Shown: positions 1,297-36,474 of the stretch, piece by piece
Position numbering within the stretch: position 1 is the stretch's first letter
Layout: each line of letters starts with the position of its first letter
Virus record (IMG/VR): IMGVR_UViG_3300037310_000190
Coordinates: 1-36,474 of that record
Reading direction: 5' to 3' (one strand)
DNA: 36,474 nt
Source: a virus
Notes under the pieces: generated by a model
Database searches by the model: none
Told to the model about the DNA's origin: nothing
The model's input: only the letters and a program-made list of their open reading frames with translations
Program-made: the position numbers and the translations under genes

Positions 1297-2049
1297 ATGA
1301 ATCTAATTACTAGGAGATCCTTCGCGGGCGCACTATCCAGCATGTTTGCTGGCGCTGGCGTCGCGGCAGAGGTCGTGCATGCACTCACGGAGCGAACGAT
1401 GGCGGGCGACGTCGCCACGCTAGTCAAGTGCATCGACCTGTTTGGCGCGCAGGCTGTAGCAGAGCTCATCATGGAGACGCCGGGTGATGTCGATCCGGCC
1501 GCTATTTTGCGAAAGGCCAACCGCCAACGCAACAAGCGGCGACGACACGAGGCAGCGGCGCGGAGGCGCGAAGCACACGCTGGGACGGAGGTGCTGTATC
1601 GTGGACCGCTGAGAGTAGCGCAGACTATGGACGGACGCGAGGTGCGGTCATCCGTGACCCGCCGTCGCGTGTGGGTGGGAAATACCGATCGAGAGTACGT
1701 CATCCGTGGAATTGGCGTACCGCGAGACGCGCGGAAGGCCATTGTCGACATAAACGTCGAACGCGATGGGTCTATCGTCCGCGATGTAGAGACGGTGGAA
1801 GTACGCAACGTGACCGTTCCGCGGGGGTCCCGCGTGCTGATCGATATGCGGCATGGGATGCGGCATGAGGTGTGGGCGTGCGAGCTGGTGAGGACTCGCG
1901 CTGGCCACGTCCGGCTGCATCTCTGGCAGGGTGCGACGGGACGCACCCTGGATGAAACCACTCCATCGCTCGCAGGTGGCGTAGTGTATGTGACGAGCGA
2001 GACGCGCAGGGTCGGGTTGCTGGGCCTACCTCTCGAGGAGAAATCGTGA
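1297..2049 (+). CDS. Protein with an N-terminal twin-arginine (Tat) signal peptide; mature part unknown and Arg-rich.
   Basis: The N-terminus MNLITRRSFAGALSSMFAGAGVAAEVVHA matches S/T-R-R-x-F, followed by a hydrophobic h-region and a VHA cleavage-like site. GGGGGT lies upstream of the ATG. The opposite-strand ORF 1281-2054 is S/R/T/P-rich shadow. Confidence 0.75.
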   Translation: MNLITRRSFAGALSSMFAGAGVAAEVVHALTERTMAGDVATLVKCIDLFGAQAVAELIMETPGDVDPAAILRKANRQRNKRRRHEAAARRREAHAGTEVLYRGPLRVAQTMDGREVRSSVTRRRVWVGNTDREYVIRGIGVPRDARKAIVDINVERDGSIVRDVETVEVRNVTVPRGSRVLIDMRHGMRHEVWACELVRTRAGHVRLHLWQGATGRTLDETTPSLAGGVVYVTSETRRVGLLGLPLEEKS

Positions 2050-2396
2050 TGCAAATCTCAAAGCGCGCTGATGGGCGCGGGCATTGGCCTAAGGGCAAGC
2101 CGCGCCGCCGTCGCGGCGTCGATGCATCAGCGTTCATCCGTGCCCTGCGGAAGGAGTTCGGCCTGTCGAGACTAGCGGAGGCAGCCGGATGCCACCACTG
2201 CACGGTGCGTCAGTGGATGGAAGGTCGCGACTGGCCTACGCTGGAGCGGCTGGAGACGATAGTTGATCGTCTCTTTCCCGTGGTCCTTCGCAGCGGGTCG
2301 CTGCCGATCAAGGGGTGTGTGTTGTATTTGGGCGTGGGGCAGTACACGCGCCAAAGCAGTAGAGGAGGAGAAGCCGATGGGCGTGGGGACGACTGA
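2046..2396 (+). CDS. Cro/C1 (XRE)-type helix-turn-helix DNA-binding protein.
   Basis: The segment FGLSRLAEAAGCHHCTVRQWMEGRDWPTLERLETIV fits the XRE HTH pattern. The start (GTG 2046 or ATG 2049) overlaps the upstream stop. Confidence 0.7.
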   Translation: MMQISKRADGRGHWPKGKPRRRRGVDASAFIRALRKEFGLSRLAEAAGCHHCTVRQWMEGRDWPTLERLETIVDRLFPVVLRSGSLPIKGCVLYLGVGQYTRQSSRGGEADGRGDD

Positions 2397-2529
2397 AATT
2401 CTAATCGTATGCGGAGTGTTCGTGCTGTTATTTGGCAGCACGCAATTGCCAAAATTAGCCCGATCGATTGGGCAAAGTATCGTGGAACTCCGAAAAGGAA
2501 TTAGTGGTGAGGAGGAAACAAATGACTAA
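2377..2529 (+). CDS. tatA: TatA/TatE-like twin-arginine translocase subunit (50 aa).
   Basis: MGVGTTEILIVCGVFVLLFGSTQLPKLARSIGQSIVELRKG has the TatA layout: short N-terminus, a TM helix with a polar Glu, an FG hinge, then an amphipathic helix of the xxLPxLxRSxGxxxxExxKG type. GAGGAGGAG sits 7 nt upstream of the ATG at 2377. The ORF track starts this frame too early, at 2263. Confidence 0.8.
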   Translation: MGVGTTEILIVCGVFVLLFGSTQLPKLARSIGQSIVELRKGISGEEETND

Positions 2530-2668: not shown

Positions 2669-3412
2669 GTGTACCGACAGAACCAGTGGGATTGCGGGAC
2701 CGCGTGTTCATTGCACGGCGCCGCGCATCTGATCGCGACTGGTCATCCTGCCGTCGAAGGGCCAACCTCCGACGACTACAGAGATTTGCCAGATCACGTA
2801 CGCGATGGCGTGCTGTCTGTGCTGTATTCGCCAGGTGGTACGCCCGATTTACTCAGGCGCGTGCTCGATAGACGTATTCGTATTGGCGCGGATGTCGAGC
2901 TGCGCAACGGGGCCAGAATTATTGATGGGGCTGTCATCGGCTCGCGAACATGGATCGGGCCGAGGGTATGTATCGAAGCGGGAGTATGGATTGAAGATGA
3001 ATCGAAGATTGGCGAAGGAGTGCAGATCGGCGAGGCAGCACGTATACGATTGCGCGTACAGCTCACTGCAAGAGTCAATGTTGGAGACAAGGCATTGATC
3101 GGCGACGACGCTTTCGTCGGCGAAGGCGCGCAAATTGGCCAGTGCGCTGTGATTGGCGATGGGGCAGAGATCGGCGCCAGATCAATGATCGGCGTGGGAT
3201 CAATGATCGGCAATGGCGCAGTGATCGGCTACGGATCTGCGATTGGCAATGTGGTATTGATCCGCGCGCGGGCAGTGATCGGCAGGATGGCAAAGGTTGG
3301 CTCGCTGGCAGTGATCGGCAGTGGCGCATTGATCGGCGAGGGAGCAGTGATCGGCGATGGATCGCAGATCGGCGCGGGGGCGATTGTCGGCAAGCGAGAA
3401 AGGGTACGATAG
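2669..3412 (+). CDS. Hexapeptide-repeat (left-handed beta-helix) protein.
   Basis: It carries more than 20 consecutive [LIV]-G-x4 hexapeptides, for example IGDDAFVGEGAQIGQCAVIGDGAEIGARSMIGVGSMIGNGAVIG. There is no in-frame ATG near the 5' end, so the start (GTG 2669 or later) is uncertain. Confidence 0.75.
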   Translation: MYRQNQWDCGTACSLHGAAHLIATGHPAVEGPTSDDYRDLPDHVRDGVLSVLYSPGGTPDLLRRVLDRRIRIGADVELRNGARIIDGAVIGSRTWIGPRVCIEAGVWIEDESKIGEGVQIGEAARIRLRVQLTARVNVGDKALIGDDAFVGEGAQIGQCAVIGDGAEIGARSMIGVGSMIGNGAVIGYGSAIGNVVLIRARAVIGRMAKVGSLAVIGSGALIGEGAVIGDGSQIGAGAIVGKRERVR

Positions 3413-5349: not shown

Positions 5350-7160
5350 GAATGAATTTGCTCTGGGAAGACGATATCGAGCTATCGGAAGAAAAGATAG
5401 CTGAGGTAGCAGCGCAGCAGATAGTGATTCGCGACTACCAGCAAGAAGCGGTCGCGAGCGTATTTGATGAGTGGTCCCGGGTGCGATCTACCCTGCTTTG
5501 CTTGCCCACGGGGACGGGCAAAAGTGTATGCTTTTCCGAAATTATGAAGCAATGGAATGGCGAAAGGATGATGCTGATTGCGCACCGAAAAGAGCTAATC
5601 TACCAGGCCGTCGGACATGCTACGCGAGCCGGTCTATCGTGCGGGATCGAGATGGCGCATCGCTACGCCAAGCCGACCGATCGCGTGGTTGTGTCATCGA
5701 TTCAGACGCTGATTTCTAGGTATCGATGCCGAGCCTGTCGCGGTGATGATTGCGAAGTCTGCGGCGGCAGCGGTAAGGTGAAGCGATTCACTCGATTTAA
5801 TCGTGACGAATTTGGCCTCGTCGTCATCGACGAAGGTCATCACGCTACCGCCAAATCCTATCGATCTGTTCTCGCTTGGTTTGATCGGTGTAAGCATCTT
5901 TTGGTCACGGCGACCCCAAAACGAACGGATAAGGTCGGGCTGCATAATGTATGCGACTCGACAGCGTATTCCATGACGCTACGTCAGGCGATTGATCTTG
6001 GTTGGCTGGTCCCTGTCCGGCAAAGATATGTCACCGTGAAAGGACTTGACCTAGAGTCTGTGAGCATCGTGGGAGGTGACCTAGACGATGGCGAACGTGA
6101 GCGGGCGTATCTAGGAGATAGCGACGAACGCGAGGATAGCCTGTTGCATGGTGTCGCGAAACCGTTCCTGGCTGAACTGAAATCAGAGCAAGGTATCATC
6201 TTTGCGTCTGGACAAGAGCACGCGAAAAAGCTCACAGCGGCACTGAATTCTTATCCAGGAGTCTATGCGGCGTGCGTGCTCGACGACACTCTACCAGCAG
6301 ATCGAGAGCGAATTGTAGACGAGTTTCGGCGCGGAACAATTCGCATACTAGTTAATTGCATGGTATTTGCTGAGGGTTTCGATGCGCCGGCAACAAGCGT
6401 GATAGGTAATTGCCGACCGACCAAAAGTCAGACGATTTTGGCACAATTCATCGGTCGCGGTACAAGGCCTCTGCCGGGTGTGGTCGATGGTCCACTGACG
6501 CCCGAAGAACGCAAGCAGGCTATCGCAAATAGCGCGAAGCCACGCTGCCTAGTGCTCGATTTTGTCGGGGCAACGGGTCGGCTGAGGCTGGCCACAACTG
6601 TGGATTTACTTGCGGGCGACGATGTAGATCCGATCGATTTAGAGGAGGCTGTGAGGGTCTCGCGAGAAGAAGGGGATGTAGATCCTGTGGAAGCGCTCGA
6701 GCGCGCGAAAGCTGCGAGAAAAGAGAGAGAGCGCGCGAAAGAAGCAGAGAAATTGCTTGTCACAAAGCGGCGAGCAGCATCTATTGAGTACAGCGCGGAC
6801 GAGGTGGATGACACGGAATTTGAATCATATCATCAAACAATCAGGCGTGATTCAATTACGCGCGGCCAACTAAATCTACTCGTGCGACGCCTTGGCTATA
6901 ATGCGTCGAAGATCAAGCACTTGTCAAAAAAAGCAGCCAGCCGCGAGATCACTAAGGCGCTAGCGATCGCGCGTGGCAAGGCAAAAAAATCATATCAGGA
7001 TAGGTTTCAGACCGCGCAGACGATGGGCGATCTGCATTGCATCGGCGGGCAGATTAAGCGCGCGATCGAGTACGGAGATGTGGTAATGAAGGATGCCGGG
7101 TTGCAGCAACAACTGCGAGAGTCGTTTCGTAAACGCGCGAAAGAATTGAGGGGCTCATGA
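5322..7160 (+). CDS. Superfamily-2 DEAD/DEAH-type helicase with an inserted zinc knuckle.
   Basis: Walker A is LPTGTGKS, motif II VVIDEGHH, motif III TATP and motif VI QFIGRGTR. The insert is CRACRGDDCEVCGGSG. An alternative start is the ATG at 5352, 3 nt after the upstream stop. Confidence 0.9.
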   Translation: MDSKIKGEVRMNLLWEDDIELSEEKIAEVAAQQIVIRDYQQEAVASVFDEWSRVRSTLLCLPTGTGKSVCFSEIMKQWNGERMMLIAHRKELIYQAVGHATRAGLSCGIEMAHRYAKPTDRVVVSSIQTLISRYRCRACRGDDCEVCGGSGKVKRFTRFNRDEFGLVVIDEGHHATAKSYRSVLAWFDRCKHLLVTATPKRTDKVGLHNVCDSTAYSMTLRQAIDLGWLVPVRQRYVTVKGLDLESVSIVGGDLDDGERERAYLGDSDEREDSLLHGVAKPFLAELKSEQGIIFASGQEHAKKLTAALNSYPGVYAACVLDDTLPADRERIVDEFRRGTIRILVNCMVFAEGFDAPATSVIGNCRPTKSQTILAQFIGRGTRPLPGVVDGPLTPEERKQAIANSAKPRCLVLDFVGATGRLRLATTVDLLAGDDVDPIDLEEAVRVSREEGDVDPVEALERAKAARKERERAKEAEKLLVTKRRAASIEYSADEVDDTEFESYHQTIRRDSITRGQLNLLVRRLGYNASKIKHLSKKAASREITKALAIARGKAKKSYQDRFQTAQTMGDLHCIGGQIKRAIEYGDVVMKDAGLQQQLRESFRKRAKELRGS

Positions 7161-7615
7161 GTGTATATGTAAGATGGTTAATTCGAAAAGATCTGCCCAA
7201 TGTGATGGAGATCGAGAACGAGAGCTTTCGGTCACCGCTAGATCGAGAGGACCTTATGCAAGTACTGAAAGGCCGAACGGTGATTGGTATGGTTGCGGCG
7301 GATGAGGAAGAAAACGTCGTTGGATTTATGATCTATGAGCTGAGAACGAGGGGAATATATCTCATAGATGTTGCCGTAGCTAAGGCACATCGACGGCGCG
7401 GCGTGGGTAGAGCGATGATGGACAAGCTCATTGCAAAACTTGACGCGCGAAGGCCGAGACTTTGCGTATCCGTTGACGAATACAGTCTGGATGCGCAGTT
7501 GTTTTTCCGGTCGATGGGCTTTCGGTTTAAGAAAATTTTGCATGGATTTTATGGTGAGTCTGATGCGTATTTGATGGAGGTGGACAGTGAGCGACAGGCG
7601 AATCAAGCTGTTTGA
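7157..7615 (+). CDS. GNAT family N-acetyltransferase (RimI-like), copy 1.
   Basis: Acetyl-CoA motif IDVAVAKAHRRRGVGRAMM. ATGA overlap with the helicase stop. It shares the AQLFFRSMGF motif with the second GNAT at 28861. Confidence 0.85.
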   Translation: MSVYVRWLIRKDLPNVMEIENESFRSPLDREDLMQVLKGRTVIGMVAADEEENVVGFMIYELRTRGIYLIDVAVAKAHRRRGVGRAMMDKLIAKLDARRPRLCVSVDEYSLDAQLFFRSMGFRFKKILHGFYGESDAYLMEVDSERQANQAV

Positions 7616-12646: not shown

Positions 12647-14076
12647 GCGAGTTGTGCTTTTCTCAAATGATAGGCGTTGATGATATCGTCGAGCGAGCTT
12701 GGGACGATCGCTCGCGATGGCACGTCCGCGCGTTTGAGAGCGCCGAGTACGATCCTCTCACCGCGAGCCGCTGGTCGCGCGTCGTTGGTGAGACCACGAT
12801 CAACGAAGAAATCGAGGCAAGCCAAAGTATTTCCAGGGCCAAAGCTGTTTATGAAGGAAGAAATTCTTCTCTAGTGCGCGGGGTTATTCACTCGCATTCT
12901 ATCGCGGTCGTTGGTGCCGAGGGTCCGACGTTAGATTTGCAGTGTACGATTGATTCGGACGATCATGAGGAATGGTGTATAGCTGCGGAAAAAGTGTGGA
13001 ATGATTTTAGCGGATGCGGGTCAGATATTTATGGAATTTCGAGATGCGAAGCATCAGGTAAATTGCATTTTGCCGATCTGCTCCAGCAATGGATAGGGTT
13101 GCTGTGGACGTGTGGCGAAGCACTAGGGGTAAAGGTCGAGGATCCTGACCGCCCTGCGGATGACCCGATCGGATGGCGGATAATGAATATCAATCCGTCT
13201 CGTTTGTACAGCCCGCCGAATTGGTCGAGAGTAGGAAGACTTGGCGTGCGCACAAATGTGATCGGTCGTCCTACGGGCTATTGGATTGGCGATGGTAATA
13301 GTGGCGGGCGCGAGATTTCGTCCGATAGAATTTATCATTTATTTCTGGAGACGGAGCCCGAGCAGCTGAGGGGAGTGCCGCTTATCAACACGTGTCTGAA
13401 CACGGCGGCGGACATCAGGGATTACGATGCAGAAGTTCTCGCGGCAGCTAGGGCCGCAGCGGCGCTTAGCATGTTCGCGTATACGACCGATCCCGAAGCC
13501 GAATACAAAGAGCCGCCAAAAGACGATCGATCGGTAAGTTATCGACGGGGACAGCTGAACTATCTACGCCCGAAGTGGCAATTGGCAAGCAATCCAGCTA
13601 CTCAGCCTAGCGCGAGCTATCGAGACCATCGTCATGAGAGGATGCCAGAACTCGGTAGACCGGTGTCAATGCCAGGGCTGATCGTGCGGCAGGACGCCAG
13701 CGGGCACAATTATAGCTCAGCGCGATTTGACTACGCGCAGTATTGCTTGGCCATCGAGGTATTCCAGCGGTGGCTAACGCGGCGATGCGTAGAGCGGCTG
13801 CGAAGGGAAGTGACGGCAACGGCGATTCTGTCGGGTGTATTGCCGCGCCAGCCGCCTGGCGTGATTGCCATTTGGACGTGGCCTCAGCCGCAGCCGATCG
13901 ACGAACTAAAGAACGCTGAGGCGGAAGCGATCCAGTTAGACACGGGGACGATTAGCTTTTCGGAAGCGTGCAAGCGTCGAGGGACGACGGCTGAGCGAGT
14001 GGCGCTACAGCGTCGGCGTGACTCTCGATTGCTGAAAAAACATGGTCTAAGGAGTGTAGAACGTGAAGATGAATAG
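12643..14076 (+). CDS. Portal protein, lambda gpB family.
   Basis: It is 477 aa. The C-terminal segment WTWPQPQPIDELKNAEAEAIQLDTGTISFSEACKRRG parallels lambda gpB WIGSGRMAIDGLKEVQEAVMLIEAGLSTYEKECAKRG. The position between the gpW-like gene and the protease fits. Confidence 0.8.
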   Translation: MSELCFSQMIGVDDIVERAWDDRSRWHVRAFESAEYDPLTASRWSRVVGETTINEEIEASQSISRAKAVYEGRNSSLVRGVIHSHSIAVVGAEGPTLDLQCTIDSDDHEEWCIAAEKVWNDFSGCGSDIYGISRCEASGKLHFADLLQQWIGLLWTCGEALGVKVEDPDRPADDPIGWRIMNINPSRLYSPPNWSRVGRLGVRTNVIGRPTGYWIGDGNSGGREISSDRIYHLFLETEPEQLRGVPLINTCLNTAADIRDYDAEVLAAARAAAALSMFAYTTDPEAEYKEPPKDDRSVSYRRGQLNYLRPKWQLASNPATQPSASYRDHRHERMPELGRPVSMPGLIVRQDASGHNYSSARFDYAQYCLAIEVFQRWLTRRCVERLRREVTATAILSGVLPRQPPGVIAIWTWPQPQPIDELKNAEAEAIQLDTGTISFSEACKRRGTTAERVALQRRRDSRLLKKHGLRSVEREDE

Positions 14077-16315
14077 ACGAAAAAGTGATTTAAGCTACAC
14101 GCGGAAAATGTCATTTTCCCCGACCTCGCTGAATGAAGCGGAAGGCACGATTGAGGCTGTAATATGTACAGAATCACCCGTAAGGAAAAGATTTGGATTT
14201 GACGAAATTCTGCTTGTCAGCGGGGCAAGCACGGGAGACCAAGTTCCGTTGCTGTTTGACCACATTCGAAATAGTTCATCAGTCATTGGATCTGCCCGGG
14301 GATTTCACATCGAAAATGATAAGCTAATTTCGCAACTCTGGTTTGACACCGAGTTGGGAAAAGAGGCGGAAAGCGTTTGGCAGCGCGTAAAAAGAAGCCA
14401 TATTCGCAAGTTTTCCATAGGATATACATACTCAGAATCTGACTATGTCACGATTAGCCCACATTCGACCAGGACAATTGTCGGCAAATCATTCACGGCG
14501 TCCGATCGCCCGTTGCGTGTTGTTTTTAAATGGGTCTTGGACGAAGTATCTACGGTGGTGATCCCCGCTGACCACAATGCTCAAGCTCGAAAAAAAGAGG
14601 CTAGACAACGTCAAGAAAAAATGGATAATAAAAGGACGAGGAGACAATCAATGGCAAGAAAATCTGAAACGGTTGCGCAAGAGAGCAATGATCAAGCCAA
14701 GACGTCCGAGCACGGATTGAGGTCACAGGAGCAAGTCGCGGATCATAGATCACATCAAGTCGCGGATCATAGATCACATCAAGTCGCGGATCATAGATCA
14801 CATCAAGTCGCGGATCACAGTAATGATCAAGTCGCGGATCATAGATCACAAGATGTAGAACAAGACGCGCGTAACGGAGCGGCGCGGGAGCGGCGGCGAC
14901 AGCAAGCGATACGCGAGCTAGCCGACCTAGCGGGGCCATGCGTTGCAGAATCTATGATCCGCCAAGCGTGCGATGAGGGCTGGGAAGAATCGCGGGCGCG
15001 GCATGTATTTGCGGGATTAGCTGCAGGATCTCGACGAGAGTCGCCCGGACCCCAAGCGCCGGCGGGACATACTCGCAACGGTTCGCAGCATGTCACGCAA
15101 CGCGCAGTAATGATCGCCCTCGGAATTCGTCACGGTGTGCGATTCGATTCGCCAGTTTTTTGCGAGAGCGGCGTCAGGCAGTCTCTGACGTATGGTAATC
15201 GCGGGGCATGGATTCCGCCTCTTGCTGCCGACCTATCGTCGCGCGGGATTCCCAGCGATGACGCGCTGGCGCGAGAATTCGAGCGCGGCTCGGCGATGGC
15301 ATCTCTGAGCAATCGAGAGCTGACGCGGATGTATCTTGAGGCGGGCGGGCACGAGGCACCATACCATCCCGATGAGCTTGTCCGGTCCGCGCTTTCGACG
15401 AGTGCGGGATTTGAAACGATGCTGTCGGGCGTTACGCACATGCTTGTTCTGCAAGGCTACGGAGACAACGCAACGGATACGCTCGGATGGGTGCATCAGG
15501 AGGAGGTCGGCGACTTCCGGCAGAATGATCGATACCAGTCTGGCGGATTTAGTAATCTGTCCAAGCTCGGAAAAAATGGTCATACGGCCAAGATTTTGAA
15601 CCCCGAAGATCCAATCAAAGAGAGTTACGCTATCGAGCGTTTCGCGGGTCAAGTGATTTTCGACGAGCGATTTATCTATGACAGCGCATCGTTTGGCATG
15701 GCCGAGCAGAGCGCCGAGGAAATCGGTCGACGAGCGCGAGAGATTCCGATTGGGCTTGTCTATTCGCAGTTGCTTTTGAACGGCAACATGTCAGACGGTG
15801 GCGCGTTCTTCAATGCGACGCGCGGCAATTTGTTGTCTCTCGCGTTGACGGGCGCTAATTTGGATTTACTAGCGCAGGCTCTTAGCTCGATGAAGGGGGC
15901 TAATGGAATGCCGACGAATGTTGCCGGAGCGACGTTGCTAACAAGCGGTTCGCTAGGGTATGAGGCCACGAAAATGATCTCTAGCGCCGAGCTGCGAAAT
16001 AGCAGTGGCGAGAGCGGAACGACAAATCCGAATTACGGTCGCTTCGACGTGGTCGTCGAGAGTCGACTAAGCAACGGAGTCGTGAATCCTGACAGCGAGA
16101 CTCTAGTTGCTGCGCGACCGAATCGATGGTACCTGGTTGGTCCGTCGTCGATGCGAGCGTGTGAACTGGGTTGGTTAGTCGGAACCGGTCGGCAACCACG
16201 AGTTCGGCGGACGCCACTTGCCCAAGGCGCTTGGGGTGTTCATCTCGATATAGTAATCGACTGCGGCGCGAAGATGATCTCGCCCCAAGCGATGGCCGCC
16301 AGTGATCAGCCATAA
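14063..16315 (+). CDS. Fusion protein: HK97/S78-type prohead protease, a repeat-containing linker, then a probable major capsid domain.
   Basis: The N-terminus has VPLLFDHIRNSSSVIG and KFSIGYTY, which are S78-like His and Ser contexts. The middle is charged and repetitive. The roughly 400-aa C-terminal part resembles Mu gpT-like capsid proteins from memory. No separate MCP gene is evident elsewhere. Confidence 0.7.
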   Translation: MKMNRRKSDLSYTRKMSFSPTSLNEAEGTIEAVICTESPVRKRFGFDEILLVSGASTGDQVPLLFDHIRNSSSVIGSARGFHIENDKLISQLWFDTELGKEAESVWQRVKRSHIRKFSIGYTYSESDYVTISPHSTRTIVGKSFTASDRPLRVVFKWVLDEVSTVVIPADHNAQARKKEARQRQEKMDNKRTRRQSMARKSETVAQESNDQAKTSEHGLRSQEQVADHRSHQVADHRSHQVADHRSHQVADHSNDQVADHRSQDVEQDARNGAARERRRQQAIRELADLAGPCVAESMIRQACDEGWEESRARHVFAGLAAGSRRESPGPQAPAGHTRNGSQHVTQRAVMIALGIRHGVRFDSPVFCESGVRQSLTYGNRGAWIPPLAADLSSRGIPSDDALAREFERGSAMASLSNRELTRMYLEAGGHEAPYHPDELVRSALSTSAGFETMLSGVTHMLVLQGYGDNATDTLGWVHQEEVGDFRQNDRYQSGGFSNLSKLGKNGHTAKILNPEDPIKESYAIERFAGQVIFDERFIYDSASFGMAEQSAEEIGRRAREIPIGLVYSQLLLNGNMSDGGAFFNATRGNLLSLALTGANLDLLAQALSSMKGANGMPTNVAGATLLTSGSLGYEATKMISSAELRNSSGESGTTNPNYGRFDVVVESRLSNGVVNPDSETLVAARPNRWYLVGPSSMRACELGWLVGTGRQPRVRRTPLAQGAWGVHLDIVIDCGAKMISPQAMAASDQP
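14732..14851 (+). repeat. In-frame 24-bp tandem repeat x5 (CAAGTCGCGGATCATAGATCACAT; peptide QVADHRSH).
   Basis: Three perfect and two variant units were read directly from the sequence, inside the protease-capsid linker. Confidence 0.95.
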
Positions 16316-16578
16316 TGAAGCGGTATAAGATAATCGCACAGGCAACCAGCATCATCGCGGGCGACTGCGTGTCAGCTGGTGATTGCGTGGCGGTAGTCGA
16401 GTCGAATTATCCCGTGCATGACGTGTTGTATTTTTTGCGTTACGCGCGGGTAGTCGAGCAAGAAGACCAGATGCCTAGCGGCAGGTCTGAAGACCAGATG
16501 CCTAGCGGCAGGTCTGAAGACCAGATGCCTAGCGGGAACAGGCCAGAACAAACAGAAAAACCTAAGAGAAGGAGATAA
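16315..16578 (+). CDS. Small repeat-containing protein (87 aa), function unknown.
   Basis: TAATG overlap with the upstream gene. Contains AGDCVS/AGDCVA and EDQMPSGRS repeats. The coding status is moderate. Confidence 0.55.
   Translation: MKRYKIIAQATSIIAGDCVSAGDCVAVVESNYPVHDVLYFLRYARVVEQEDQMPSGRSEDQMPSGRSEDQMPSGNRPEQTEKPKRRR
16462..16535 (+). repeat. In-frame 27-bp tandem repeat, about 2.7 copies (GAAGACCAGATGCCTAGCGGCAGGTCT).
   Basis: Two perfect units plus the 20 identical leading bases of a third, read directly. Confidence 0.95.
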
Positions 16579-25076: not shown

Positions 25077-25395
25077 CGATCGACTTACTCGACTTGAGCG
25101 CTCATTATCGGCGATGTCCAAGTCTAAGACCTCGGCCCCGCTAGTGGGATTGTTTCTCGTTCCTTCATCAGGAATTGCCGGTGTGTTTGAAAATGTGGTG
25201 CATAGCGAAGAATGCCTTAGATATACAATACAAATTACCGACGGAGTAGCCAGTATAGTGCCACTGGTCGTCGGCGACGGTCAAGTTGTGGAGCGGGTCT
25301 ATAACGACATGACAGTCGACCTCCAGCCCGGTCATTTGATCAAGGCGATTAGATGCTGTGGGTTGTGGCTCCCCTTTACCGAGGACTGCGGATGA
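25063..25395 (+). CDS. Hypothetical protein (110 aa).
   Basis: ATG at 25063 (the frame opens at 25018). The N-terminal coiled segment is SVDDRLTRLERSL. ATGA overlap with the lipase gene. Confidence 0.6.
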   Translation: MSSVDDRLTRLERSLSAMSKSKTSAPLVGLFLVPSSGIAGVFENVVHSEECLRYTIQITDGVASIVPLVVGDGQVVERVYNDMTVDLQPGHLIKAIRCCGLWLPFTEDCG

Positions 25396-26132
25396 ACAGA
25401 CAAGACGCGCTAAGGATAGCACGAATGATTTATGCGGTATCCAAAAGAGAGGAGGAAGCGTGCGCGTCTGAGATAGGCATGTCAGTAGTCTATCGGCGTG
25501 TACTGAATTTGCGTGCTGCAGTGTTCTCCGATCACGACCAGGTAATCGTTGCGATACCCGGAAGCGATGACTTAGCGGACTGGATTTCGAACTTCGATAG
25601 TCGTTTAGAGCACGTCGTAATTCGCAGGAAAAACATGGTCGCGCATCGTGGCGCAGTGCATAATGCGCTAGCGCTGTATCCGTTCGTCGCGGGATCTGTG
25701 TATCCGTTCGTCGCGAAGCATGAGCAAGATATCATCATTGCGGGGCATAGCGCAGGTGGTCAGATCGCGGAGATCCTGGGGGCCGCGATGTCAGCGACGG
25801 TGTACACCTTCGGCGCGCCGCGTGTGTTTTCTCAGGCGTCGGCGGTCGATCTTGTCGCGACAAAACGATATCGATTTACGAATCAGCGTGATCCGATTCC
25901 CAGTTTGCCATTGCGGAAATTTCGCTGGTTATTTGGTGGGGCATCGTTCGCCCATGCGTCGCCCGAATTACATTTAGAGGGAAATGGTGATATAATAACA
26001 GACAGGAAGGAAAGATCCTTTCTGAATTTGTTTACTAGGTCGTGGTGGGATCTCTGGCGGCGACGGTTGCCGCTAGCCATCCACGATCACCATATGACAA
26101 GCTACATTGAAGCATTGGAGAAAAAGGTATGA
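25392..26132 (+). CDS. Class-3 lipase / alpha-beta hydrolase.
   Basis: The nucleophile elbow is IIIAGHSAGGQIA (GHSxG). NQRDPIPSLP gives the Asp context and HDHHMTSYIEAL the His context, both typical of Lipase_3. No signal peptide. The ORF track frame opens at 25353. Confidence 0.8.
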   Translation: MNRQDALRIARMIYAVSKREEEACASEIGMSVVYRRVLNLRAAVFSDHDQVIVAIPGSDDLADWISNFDSRLEHVVIRRKNMVAHRGAVHNALALYPFVAGSVYPFVAKHEQDIIIAGHSAGGQIAEILGAAMSATVYTFGAPRVFSQASAVDLVATKRYRFTNQRDPIPSLPLRKFRWLFGGASFAHASPELHLEGNGDIITDRKERSFLNLFTRSWWDLWRRRLPLAIHDHHMTSYIEALEKKV

Positions 26133-28546: not shown

Positions 28547-28861
28547 ATGGATTTCGAGGGAAAAGTCGGGGCAGCGCTGGCGGAGCAAATGCGCCAGATA
28601 CAGGAAGAGGGCAACGCCTTTTCGCCCGTCAACGCAAAACTTCAAGAGGCGCAAAACCGACTACTAGAAGGATTCTTGTCACGATCGGAGCCTAGGCCCG
28701 TACATCCACTGGCCGGGAACGAGGATTTCGCCTGGATCGTCAGCCAACTTCAGTCGAATCCTCTTGTGATTCCGTACTTTCGGAAGTACCTGGAAGCAGT
28801 CCTAGTTCAACTAAAAGCGGACATTGAAGCATCACTTGCAAAATCGCTTGGTCAGGTCTGA
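28547..28861 (+). CDS. Hypothetical protein (104 aa).
   Basis: Tightly packed ORF. No motif recognised. Confidence 0.6.
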   Translation: MDFEGKVGAALAEQMRQIQEEGNAFSPVNAKLQEAQNRLLEGFLSRSEPRPVHPLAGNEDFAWIVSQLQSNPLVIPYFRKYLEAVLVQLKADIEASLAKSLGQV

Positions 28862-29292
28862 TGGTAACTACGATGATCATAAGAAAAGCCAGTGTAGCCG
28901 ACCTGCTCGACATGACAAACCTGGAGGCGAGATGTTTTCAGGGGCCATGGGAGATCAATGATTTCTTGGATGCGTTCAAAAAATATCACATGCTCGTTCT
29001 TTGTGACGGCGACGAATTGGTGGGTTATGTAGTATTTGTTCAACGCGGCAAGAAGCTAGAGATCATCAACGTGGCGGTCGCTCCTGAGAGACGGCAGCAA
29101 GGCCTAGGGACAGAGCTTTGTGTTGCTGTGGCGCTGGCAGGACCAACCACGGCATTTATTCCGGAAAATAACCTAGTGGCGCAATTGTTCTTCCGCTCGC
29201 TGGGATTTAGCGCGGTGCAAATACACCGACAAGGAAGCGGCAACGATATCTACGAATTCCGGAATAAGAGACGGAAGCGAGCTGCGGTATGA
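28861..29292 (+). CDS. GNAT family N-acetyltransferase (RimI-like), copy 2.
   Basis: INVAVAPERRQQGLGTEL (the Q/RxxGxG/A motif). AQLFFRSLGF is shared with the GNAT at 7157. TGATG overlap. Confidence 0.8.
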   Translation: MVTTMIIRKASVADLLDMTNLEARCFQGPWEINDFLDAFKKYHMLVLCDGDELVGYVVFVQRGKKLEIINVAVAPERRQQGLGTELCVAVALAGPTTAFIPENNLVAQLFFRSLGFSAVQIHRQGSGNDIYEFRNKRRKRAAV

Positions 29293-29825: not shown

Positions 29826-29999
29826 ATGACAGAGTATACGCTGTATACAGTAGAAGGCTTGCTAACGATTGCCATCACAACCTTAGCAGGACTTGTCACG
29901 TATCTGTGGAAAGAAATTAGAATTTGCGCTGAAGACCGGAAAAAATTATGGGGTGAGCTGGCGTATCTCCGTGGAAAGATTGGCGTTAACGACGATTGA
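29826..29999 (+). CDS. Small single-TM membrane protein (57 aa), not in the supplied ORF track; holin-like candidate.
   Basis: Hand translation gives MTEYTLYTVEGLLTIAITTLAGLVTYLWKEIRICAEDRKKLWGELAYLRGKIGVNDD. The ATG lies 4 nt after the upstream stop, and the TGA overlaps the TTG start of the next gene. Confidence 0.55.
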   Translation: MTEYTLYTVEGLLTIAITTLAGLVTYLWKEIRICAEDRKKLWGELAYLRGKIGVNDD

Positions 30000-35201: not shown

Positions 35202-35226
35202 GCCCGGACATCGGGCACTTTTTTTT
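35202..35226 (+). terminator. Rho-independent terminator 1 at the end of the late operon.
   Basis: Stem GCCCG, loop GACAT, stem CGGGC, followed by AC and T8. Confidence 0.8.
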
Positions 35227-35385: not shown

Positions 35386-35414
35386 TTGACGCGACGGCGA
35401 CGAATTGGTATAAT
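35386..35414 (+). promoter_or_regulatory. Near-consensus sigma70 early promoter.
   Basis: TTGACG (35386-35391), an exactly 17-nt spacer, then TATAAT (35409-35414). All downstream genes are co-oriented. Confidence 0.75.
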
Positions 35415-35728: not shown

Positions 35729-35934
35729 AAAGCTGGTCTGGAGACCGGAAGAAATTTGCGTGGGCGGGGGCAATGAGTATAGACGCCATCTGCCACGCAA
35801 TCGATTGCGGTATGCGCGGGGAGCTGATATTCGGCGGGCCGGATGCGGACGCCGCCGAGGCGGACTTTGTTGGGCGCTGCGTGATGATAGAGCAGTTCAT
35901 GGCGTCCCTGCCCTCCCCTGATGATGAAGAGTAG
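35716..35934 (+). CDS. Small early protein, paralog 2 (72 aa).
   Basis: ATG at 35716, within the frame listed as 35587..35934. It is a paralog of the 35486 product and overlaps that gene by 13 nt. Confidence 0.6.
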   Translation: MYTIESWSGDRKKFAWAGAMSIDAICHAIDCGMRGELIFGGPDADAAEADFVGRCVMIEQFMASLPSPDDEE

Positions 35935-35939
35935 TAGCT

Positions 35940-36038
35940 CACTCCTCCGTCGCGTGTGCCCCCGAGCGCGACGGTGAGGCCGAATCGGGGTCGCTGGGTG
36001 CGGGCGTATCGCACCAGACCGCTGGCCAGCGGGGCGCG
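35940..36038 (+). repeat. 99-nt structured element, copy B. Its partner is at 971-1069.
   Basis: The hairpin pairs 35947-35954 with 35967-35974 (8 bp, 12-nt loop). The 14-bp palindrome CCGCTGGCCAGCGG is at 36019-36032. It starts right after the TAGTAG stops. Confidence 0.85.
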
Positions 36039-36082: not shown

Positions 36083-36474
36083 ATGAAGACTATCAAAGAA
36101 CTGATAAGCCGTGGTGATGATGATCTCACACAGTGGCTCGGGCTCGATGTGTCATCAGCGTGGCACGATCTCTCTGATGACGAGAGAGACTGGCTAGTGG
36201 ATGCCGGGATAGTCCGCGAGGTGCGGGCGTCTGTGGTCTGCACCAGTGCTCAGCACTGGTCAGATGACTGGCAGCCCGAGTCGGGGGCTAGTTGGCCTGC
36301 ATACTCACTAGAGATCCGGGCTGACGGGATGGCCCCTTTGACCGTCGAGGGATGGCATGTCGTCGGACCAGACGTGATCACTGGAGATCGCGGATGGGGA
36401 GTCAGCGATGACGACGGCTGCTATCGAGGCACTCCTCGCGTGGACGGCTGGGCGATCGAGGAGTTTGATCGCAT
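36083..36474 (+). CDS. 5' part of the junction-spanning acidic early protein gene (continues at base 1).
   Basis: The ATG at 36083 has GGAGAG 8 nt upstream. The frame stays open to the window end and matches the frame of 27..968 through the 127-bp overlap. Confidence 0.75.
   Translation, partial: MKTIKELISRGDDDLTQWLGLDVSSAWHDLSDDERDWLVDAGIVREVRASVVCTSAQHWSDDWQPESGASWPAYSLEIRADGMAPLTVEGWHVVGPDVITGDRGWGVSDDDGCYRGTPRVDGWAIEEFDR
36348..36474. repeat. Terminal overlap copy 2 (identical to 1-127).
   Basis: 127/127 identity by direct comparison. Confidence 0.95.

Follow-up and report, generated by a model that had tools for sequence, protein, structure and literature searches.

Why should a phage carry a gene for a twin-arginine translocation (Tat) subunit only one gene away from a gene whose product opens with a twin-arginine (RR) leader? 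The question is raised by the IMG/VR virus record IMGVR_UViG_3300037310_000190, which was analysed over its whole length of 36,474 nucleotides (nt) and is referred to below as the window. Its + strand carries a gene for an RR-leader protein (the RR protein), an XRE-type helix-turn-helix (HTH) gene and a TatA/TatE-family gene of 50 codons (the phage TatA). These three genes form a cassette that lies in a viral genome and whose parts are inherited together across related contigs. The explanation that we favour, at a probability of about 0.55, is that the cassette is a virus-borne Tat module which is dedicated to one cargo and works through the TatC of its host.

A sequence-only reading of the window had credited the 50-residue product with the complete TatA architecture, and comparison with the TatA profile PF02416 bore this out at E=3.4e-11; the 42.7 bits exceed the gathering score of 21, and the match spans positions 1-47 of the 53 in the profile. 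Among the NCBIfam models, TIGR01411 (tatAE) gave the best match (E=5.1e-13), with the tatB model scoring far lower (24.8 bits). All of the 70 relatives retrieved from databases carried PF02416, with identities to the phage TatA of up to 65%, and in an alignment with 27 relatives the phage protein kept every invariant column (L17, F19, G20, P25, K26, L27, A28, R29, S30, G32, E37 and G41). It aligned without gaps to residues 3-48 of Escherichia coli TatA and likewise to chloroplast TatA. The polar residue E7 is followed by a 12-residue hydrophobic core, ILIVCGVFVLLF, by the hinge F19-G20 and by an amphipathic helix from L24 to G41 with the basic K26 at its start and G32 at its centre; the acidic tail E45-E46-E47 aligns with D45-D46-E47 of E. 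coli TatA at an offset of one residue. The hydrophobic moment of the predicted amphipathic helix was 0.58, compared with 0.27±0.13 for shuffled sequences. As a cellular reference we used the 93 TatA open reading frames (ORFs) in the 80 closest genome loci, in which the hinge residues recurred as F in 92 and as G in all 93. An AlphaFold2 (AF2) model showed one helix over residues 5-43 (predicted local distance difference test, pLDDT, 85) with no break at the hinge, and a fold search with this single helix was uninformative, its sole match being TatB at E=8.8.

The sequence-only reading had also likened the transmembrane (TM) Glu and the RSIGQ motif to thylakoid and cyanobacterial TatA. This likeness did not prove specific, as Glu occupies the E7 column in 84 of the 93 closest cellular TatAs and these are scattered over metagenome-assembled genomes (MAGs) of Planctomycetota (including Pirellulales), Verrucomicrobia, Acidimicrobiia and Spirochaetota. 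The C-terminal region of TatA is dispensable according to a review that cites Lee et al. 2002 (PMC9527704). With its 50 residues the phage protein would correspond to a minimal functional TatA, and judged by homology its gene encodes a true TatA homologue.

The RR protein begins MNLITRRSFAGALSSMFAGAGVAAEVVHA and carries the motif T5-R6-R7-S8-F9-A10-G11, of which the arginine pair and the Phe fit the S/T-R-R-x-F-L-K consensus. The motif is followed by a hydrophobic (h-) region, FAGALSSMFAGAGVAA, comprising 16 uncharged residues with a mean Kyte-Doolittle value of 1.47. A search of 5.8 billion proteins returned 24 homologues at E<=1e-3; all 24 keep the arginine pair, with R6 invariant and R7 at least 90% conserved in their alignment, and the N-terminal consensus read MxxRRxFLGxxAAxxAxAGVA, with the motif [ST]-RR-x-F-[LV]-G and K or R at position +4 in several members. 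The h-regions of the family contained 14-23 uncharged residues, were rich in Gly and Ala and had Kyte-Doolittle values of 1.1-2.0, a moderate hydrophobicity, as in Tat rather than Sec signals. Tat-signal models were the only profile families to match several members, namely TIGR01409 in 9 of the 24 homologues (best E 1.3e-4), formate_TAT in 4 and PF10518 in 4 (best E 1.3e-3). When a simple Tat rule (RR-x-[FLIVM] with 13 or more uncharged residues) was applied to the 180 six-frame ORFs of at least 60 residues in the window, only the RR gene and one out-of-frame internal ORF passed. Distant family members keep the composition of the h-region and not its sequence, and the region therefore appears to behave like a targeting peptide. 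About a quarter of these distant members are signal-less and start exactly at the helical domain that follows the leader, so that the leader seems to be a separable module. We regard the RR motif as more than chance.

The part behind the leader was modelled by AF2 with a mean pLDDT of 83.6. After the signal helix and a small helical domain come a 28-residue Arg-rich helix (residues 67-94), a beta-rich domain (98-227), a low-confidence linker and a conserved VGLLGLPL tail (window 2014-2037). No relative of the RR protein was found in Pfam, PHROG, PADLOC or the PDB sequences, and no NCBIfam family besides the Tat-signal models matched within its family; Foldseek searches of PDB and BFVD with the model gave no match at E<0.001. 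The RR protein is thus predicted to be a candidate cargo of new fold. Close family members end in GLLGLPL and distant ones in [DE][DE]L[FY]xIQ[ED]x[LM]E (the ELFxIQE type); we take the GLLGLPL tail to resemble the QLxLxL clamp-binding hexapeptide, and tails of either kind to resemble docking tails of the clamp or single-stranded DNA-binding protein (SSB) type. The family is rare and is seen on metagenomic contigs. Among 1.84 billion cluster representatives only 65 members were found by profile search, IMG/VR contained a single RR-family contig (L006), and a DNA pattern search for the C-terminal motif returned 27 chance matches and no family member.

The arrangement of the cassette in the window is given in Table 1. 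The gene boundaries and the GAGGAGGAG ribosome-binding site named in the sequence-only reading were all confirmed, and so was its remark that the ORF track conceals the TatA gene: in the mechanical ORF list it is visible only as the tail of an 88-residue ORF with a TTG start (2263-2529), within which the homology to TatA starts at residue 39-41. An independent 1471-bp contig from the Joint Genome Institute (L010) carries the same three genes, and there the 50-residue form is annotated as TatA. The HTH protein matched HTH_3 (PF01381) at E=9.7e-7, its 29.2 bits exceeding the cut-off of 23. Its gene does overlap both neighbours, by 1 nt with the RR stop codon (4 nt if counted from GTG) and by 20 nt with the TatA start, and such overlapping genes suggest translational coupling. 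A separate acquisition of TatA was considered on account of its GC content (TatA 46%, RR gene 63%, genome 53%) and rejected, because nearly all related loci show the same offset, which is set by amino-acid composition. Directly downstream of TatA lies a gene (2669-3412) for a hexapeptide-repeat protein (left-handed beta-helix) that matched Hexapep with E=2.7e-26 and also phrog_5353, a family of unknown function.

Table 1. Positions of the cassette features and of a promoter-like site in the window
Feature	Position	Strand	Basis
RR protein gene, 250 residues, candidate Tat cargo	1297-2049	+	ATG 1297, stop 2047-2049
Predicted twin-arginine signal peptide, residues 1-29	1297-1383	+	RR codons 1312-1317, RR conservation, family profile matches
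XRE-type HTH gene, 115 residues	2049-2396	+	ATG 2049 (or GTG 2046), stop 2394-2396
Shine-Dalgarno-like GAGGAGGAG	2362-2370	+	Ends 6 nt before the TatA ATG, within the 3' end of the HTH gene
TatA/TatE-family gene, 50 residues	2377-2529	+	ATG 2377, TAA 2527-2529
Possible promoter, TTGACG-17-TATAAT with upstream TG	35386-35414	+	Consensus scan, 11 of 12 positions

The window is a viral element, as the sequence-only reading had taken it to be. Bases 1-127 and 36348-36474 form a 127-nt terminal direct repeat with 100% identity, and the contig is a closed circular assembly representing the complete genome (36,347 bp) of an uncultured tailed phage. Since it closes as a circle, a host flank is excluded. 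It encodes the viral hallmarks portal, protease-major-capsid fusion and large terminase (TerL), together with a helicase, an exonuclease VIII-like PDDEXK protein, NinG and a DNA methyltransferase. No DNA similarity was found between the window and 50,697 deposited phage genomes; portal and TerL were at most 25% identical to proteins of cultured phages, with the best TerL match in an Akkermansia phage. The window contained no tRNAs, and neither TatC nor TatB was found in it; as none of its ORFs has three or more hydrophobic segments, a phage-encoded TatC is ruled out. A search for prophages and hosts in one genome per species, covering 185,579 species, gave no RR-family match, and there is a weak hint that the host belongs to the Planctomycetes-Verrucomicrobia-Chlamydiae (PVC) group.

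The genomic context was read for every RR homologue with a retrievable contig, which gave 13 informative lineages, and the contigs were scanned in six frames with hidden Markov models (HMMs) made from cellular TatAs and phage copies. A TatA-like mini-gene of 42-54 codons shared its strand with the RR gene and adjoined it in 10 of the 13 lineages (in our contig handles the window/L010, L011/12, L013/14, L015, L016, L017, L006/L009, L008, L100/101 and L102), so that the pairing noted in the sequence-only reading recurs in related phages. It stood immediately upstream of the RR gene in eight of these ten (L006, L008, L011, L015, L016, L017, L100 and L102), and in the six upstream cases with called coordinates the overlap between the TatA stop and the RR start measured 4-17 nt. 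The TatA-like gene of L013 follows 12 nt after the RR gene, and in the window the HTH gene stands between the two. Three gene orders are found in all: HTH-TatA-RR, RR-HTH-TatA and RR-TatA-HTH. A homologue of the window HTH gene was adjacent to the RR gene in all 13 lineages, including the three in which no TatA-like gene was seen, and the HTH gene is therefore the most constant member of the cassette and not the mere linker as which it had first been described. The genes that flank the trio vary from contig to contig (capsid genes, RadC plus MYG1 exonuclease, TnpB, UvrD helicase, CsrA), which argues that the trio is a cassette and not a by-product of conserved synteny.

The TatA-like copies are of two subtypes, three being canonical (LLFGSxxLPK) and seven divergent, phage-only and marked by an F/C-P-x-R-L hinge; all phage copies score best on tatAE models, above tatB. 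No RR-family neighbour was seen at any of the cellular loci that carry the closest TatAs (0/80). The one signal-less member with a readable context (L105) had neither a TatA-like gene nor an HTH gene beside it. A metagenomic chimera of 79 residues (P0132) joins a TatA N-terminus, MFGIGTTEILVVGVVVLLLFGSARL, to the C-terminal part of an RR-family protein, AEVVATVAGRIRLHLW..., and probably arose by deletion across an adjacent TatA-RR gene pair; it would thus also bear witness to the adjacency. In two unrelated contigs, TnpB-like genes (Cas12f1-like_TNB; L015 3555-4802 and L016 4804-6660) follow closely after the HTH-TatA-RR cassette.

A scan of IMG/VR with a TatA alignment found two viral contigs. 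In the contig IMGVR_UViG_3300009034_000632 (L098; 604-2282), which has a GC content of 40% and a gene content unrelated to that of the window, a TatA gene (604-783; PF02416, E=1.5e-15) is directly followed by ORFs at 867-1181 (MNMTRREFIK) and 1178-2074 (MKNMNRRDFVK). Their leaders, TRREFIK and NRRDFVK, are each accompanied by an uncharged stretch of 15-16 residues, and downstream lie an HTH_8 gene and a fusion of GTP_EFTU and PAPS_reduct. Apart from the leader, nothing in these two ORFs relates them to the RR family, which suggests more than one origin for the pairing of a viral TatA with an RR-leader protein. Only nine of the 50,697 deposited phage records matched TatA, none of them with a phage-gene annotation and two being plainly bacterial assemblies. 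TatA is thus essentially absent from these records and not a common phage accessory gene.

On the cellular side, the phoD-tatAd-tatCd locus of Bacillus subtilis is a substrate gene clustered with tat genes, and operons in Spirochaetota MAGs (L035, L036, L041, L046, L049, L078 and L096) likewise have the gene for a protein of about 600 residues with an SRRQFLGL leader first, then tatC and last tatA. As judged by eye, a convincing neighbouring substrate was present at only about 8-9 of the 80 cellular TatA loci. The simple RR rule, when run on these loci with all alternative starts, was too permissive and was set aside; it even caught the ELRRRL of TatC itself.

How might such a cassette work? 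Because the phage has neither TatC nor TatB, recognition of the RR leader would have to use a host receptor, and any translocation function of the phage TatA would depend on host TatC. In the reading that we favour, the regulator, the TatA-like protein and the RR cargo would be produced together from one cassette, and the RR leader would dock on the TatC(B) receptor of the host. The phage TatA-like protein would insert spontaneously into the membrane and join or replace host TatA at the receptor, where it would supply the membrane-weakening assembly. The folded, very basic cargo could then cross the cytoplasmic membrane, or stay anchored in it by an uncleaved leader, and outside the cytoplasm it would act on the envelope or on incoming competitors.

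As the sequence-only reading had suggested, host export of folded proteins may be remodelled or hijacked by the virus, and production may begin early in infection. The consensus scan found one promoter-like site, where 0.4 were expected by chance, and this site (35386-35414) is the strongest sigma-70-like match of its region. We infer that it drives a + strand unit which crosses the circular junction into the cassette, about 2.3-3.5 kb downstream; its position fits early expression of the cassette and does not show it. A terminator-like hairpin at 35202-35216 precedes the site, and a piece of its -10 region recurs at 29005-29030. A direct repeat of 106 nt with 92% identity (964-1069 and 35933-36038) connects the place where the first two + strand ORFs meet with the stretch just before the circular junction.

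Other features of the genome lie further from the cassette. Within the gene of the protease-major-capsid fusion (14063-16315), a 24-nt unit is present in six tandem copies (14708-14875) that encode a repeated octapeptide, and three tandem copies of a 27-nt unit (GAAGACCAGATGCCTAGCGGCAGGTCT) occupy 16462-16542 in the gap after the capsid gene. Two acetyltransferase-like paralogues (7157-7615 and 28861-29292) both match phrog_1249 and phrog_3810. A class-3 lipase/esterase gene (25353-26132) is followed by a 78-residue ORF with a signal-like N-terminus (region to 26365), and a 57-residue ORF with a single TM segment (29826-29999) lies between an HNH endonuclease gene and the terminase genes. The lipase gene and these small membrane ORFs may be related to lysis; no endolysin was identified in the window.

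Several observations weigh against a dedicated Tat module. With regard to the leader, positions +3 and +4 of the window motif are A and G instead of the canonical Leu and Lys, and the leader of the window protein itself matched neither TIGR01409 nor PF10518; with these two residues it is, as far as can be judged from its sequence, too divergent for the Tat-signal HMMs. The Tat signal proposed in the sequence-only reading is supported by the conserved arginine pair and by the profile matches of the family. A possible cleavage site, V27-H28-A29, is present in the window protein, and no signal-peptidase site was conserved across the alignment of 24 homologues, so that the leader may stay on as an anchor. 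For an exported protein the mature part is uncommonly basic (isoelectric point, pI, about 9-10.9), and it contains the Arg-rich helix; weak matches to SSB or oligonucleotide/oligosaccharide-binding (OB) folds were seen in PDB (probability 0.66), in BFVD (0.57) and for one NCBIfam SSB model, all at E>0.001. Moreover, the cassette has genes for DNA metabolism and regulators as neighbours, including the exonuclease and the helicase. As to co-inheritance, three lineages with an RR leader had no TatA-like gene in the fetched flanks, and a phage TatA is therefore not obligatory; nor did the TatA-like and RR proteins co-diversify to a significant degree (Mantel r=0.32, p≈0.09, for nine pairs of short proteins).

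The remaining objections concern the phage TatA itself, whose TIGR01411 score of 48.4 bits is below the curated cut-off of 53.9. According to a review, the features that matter for TatA function include the Phe-Gly hinge, a positively charged residue where the amphipathic helix begins, the Gly at its centre, an acidic patch and the FK motif (PMC9527704). Only the FK motif deviates among these positions in the phage TatA, where it reads L38-R39. All nine aligned phage copies have L, I, V or T at its first position, and eight have R at the second, the ninth (L100) having T. We considered FK to LR as the mark of a poison, dominant-negative or otherwise defective subunit and rejected it as diagnostic, because this first position is L or I in 12 of the 93 cellular relatives and F in 81. 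The deviation appears to be tolerated in cells, and on this comparison membership of the TatA/TatE family stands.

Four other explanations were weighed against a dedicated module. The first, which we hold to be possible and doubtful, is that the cassette jams or takes over the Tat system: the RR leader would engage host TatBC without productive export, and the phage TatA/B-like protein would act as an altered translocon subunit. Host Tat export would then be blocked or re-purposed, for instance by stopping amidases and respiratory enzymes or by excluding competitors. This explanation draws on the same Tat leader and TatA-family identity as the dedicated module, and the FK deviation shared by all phage copies is in line with it, as are the hinges of seven of the ten cassettes, which are nearer to the G-P-x-R-L of TatB. 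The very basic passenger with its Arg-rich helix, atypical of exported proteins, and the place of the cassette downstream of the strongest promoter-like site of the region, consistent with early expression, would fit it too. However, the window TatA keeps every column that is invariant in functional cellular TatAs, of which 12% also have L at the F position, the phage proteins score higher on tatAE than on tatB models, and no sequence feature marks the passenger as non-translocatable.

We hold just as tentatively a bolder form of the idea, in which the TatA/B-like peptide and the RR protein constitute a translocation device under viral control, which would do more than borrow the pathway of the host and would have the HTH protein as its switch. 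In one version, the viral subunit would reprogram the TatC of the host, with the result that the viral cargo is served by the translocon or locks it; in a second and more radical one, the two components would provide minimal export or membrane permeabilisation without TatC. If true, this would be the first instance of a virus taking over the Tat pathway, and the device would offer a natural minimal system in which to study TatA-substrate recognition.

It is rather unlikely that the phage TatA merely tops up host TatA and raises export capacity in general, as an auxiliary metabolic gene might, with the adjacency of the RR gene reflecting shared early expression. The window TatA is indeed of a near-canonical cellular type, being 55-65% identical to MAG TatAs and only 48-56% to other phage copies, and the three RR lineages without a phage TatA would also be accounted for. 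Yet the two genes stay adjacent in 10 of 13 lineages with changing flanks and gene orders and with frames that usually overlap. Most partners, moreover, belong to the divergent phage-only subtype and are not recent copies of host genes, and the scarcity of TatA among deposited phage records speaks against a general booster.

We give little credence, to a similar extent, to a membrane device that is independent of Tat and needs no host TatC, in which the TatA-like peptide would be holin-like or depolarising and the RR N-terminus an anchor or interaction helix, with roles such as lysis timing, superinfection exclusion or abortive infection. An XRE-type HTH gene beside a small membrane protein is a common layout of toxin and exclusion modules, and the window TatA does combine a 12-residue hydrophobic core with a strongly amphipathic helix. 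TatA weakens membranes by its short TM segment and amphipathic helix, and the holins TpeE and BhlA, which have the same TatA-like topology and no sequence similarity to TatA, are proposed to do likewise (PMC9527704). The resemblance of the phage protein to TatA is nevertheless one of true sequence homology, beyond topology, and the leader of its partner fits the Tat consensus specifically (S/T-RR-x-F-L). PADLOC gave no match for the RR protein or TatA, and only a weak RmrA match for the HTH protein (E=0.019); in addition, the cassette is distant from the likely lysis region around the lipase gene and the small membrane ORFs.

The least probable explanation, a cytoplasmic RR protein associated with DNA or the replisome, with an N-terminus that only looks Tat-like and a functionally unrelated TatA-like neighbour, would accommodate the Arg-rich helix and basic pI, the weak SSB/OB-like matches, the signal-less homologues, the disordered linker with its conserved terminal peptide (GLLGLPL or ELFxIQE) and the exonuclease and helicase neighbours, but no fold or profile match reached significance, and the invariant arginines, the Tat-signal HMM matches and a TatA-like partner that recurs, with overlapping frames, in three gene orders would be left unexplained.

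The sequence-only reading had considered the pairing undescribed, and full-text literature searches agreed, bringing up neither a phage-encoded TatA nor a phage TatA-cargo pair; the nearest case was the TatC annotation of a marine virus discussed below. The components themselves are of known kinds (the TatA family, a Tat signal, an XRE-type HTH protein), and what is new is a mobile viral cassette that combines a minimal TatA with a cargo of predicted new fold, a combination that neither Tat nor phage research would have led one to expect. How TatA assemblies pass their substrates is still debated, and a TatA-family protein of 42-54 residues with one dedicated cargo, usually encoded in overlapping frames, would be a natural minimal TatA-substrate pair. 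The cassette could be used to probe directly whether TatA recognises its passenger and whether a foreign TatA fits a host TatC. For phage biology, protein export would join the host functions that viruses carry, and the cassette points to an exported or membrane-anchored viral protein that may exclude competitors, remodel the envelope or block host export.

With the E. coli TatA and TatE proteins and with chloroplast Tha4, the phage TatA has in common the minimal-TatA length class, a polar residue before the 12-residue TM core, the F-G hinge, an amphipathic helix that opens with L-P-K and has a Gly at its centre, and the acidic tail. It departs from the TatA/TatE family in being phage-encoded without tatC or tatB, in reading LR for FK and in scoring below the NCBI tatAE cut-off. 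In most related phages the partner is the divergent F-P-x-R-L subtype of 42-54 residues, which is unlike canonical TatA/TatE; its LFPRRL or LFPGRL resembles the G-P-Q-R-L hinge of TatB, with which the N-terminal Glu is also common, whereas the phage copies differ from TatB in their higher tatAE scores and in having no long TatB C-terminal region. The viral cassette resembles phoD-tatAd-tatCd and the Spirochaetota operons in that a substrate gene is clustered with its own TatA-family gene, and is set apart from these cellular substrate-tat operons by having no TatC, by its new cargo family and HTH regulator and by its movement between phage genomes. In contrast to the holins TpeE and BhlA, the phage TatA is a true TatA homologue and stands outside a lysis cassette. 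A Tat component in a viral genome has a further precedent in a circular marine virus, whose TatC is a bare and unexamined annotation in a figure legend (PMC10564846); in the phages described here, a TatA, an RR cargo and a regulator occur together across lineages.

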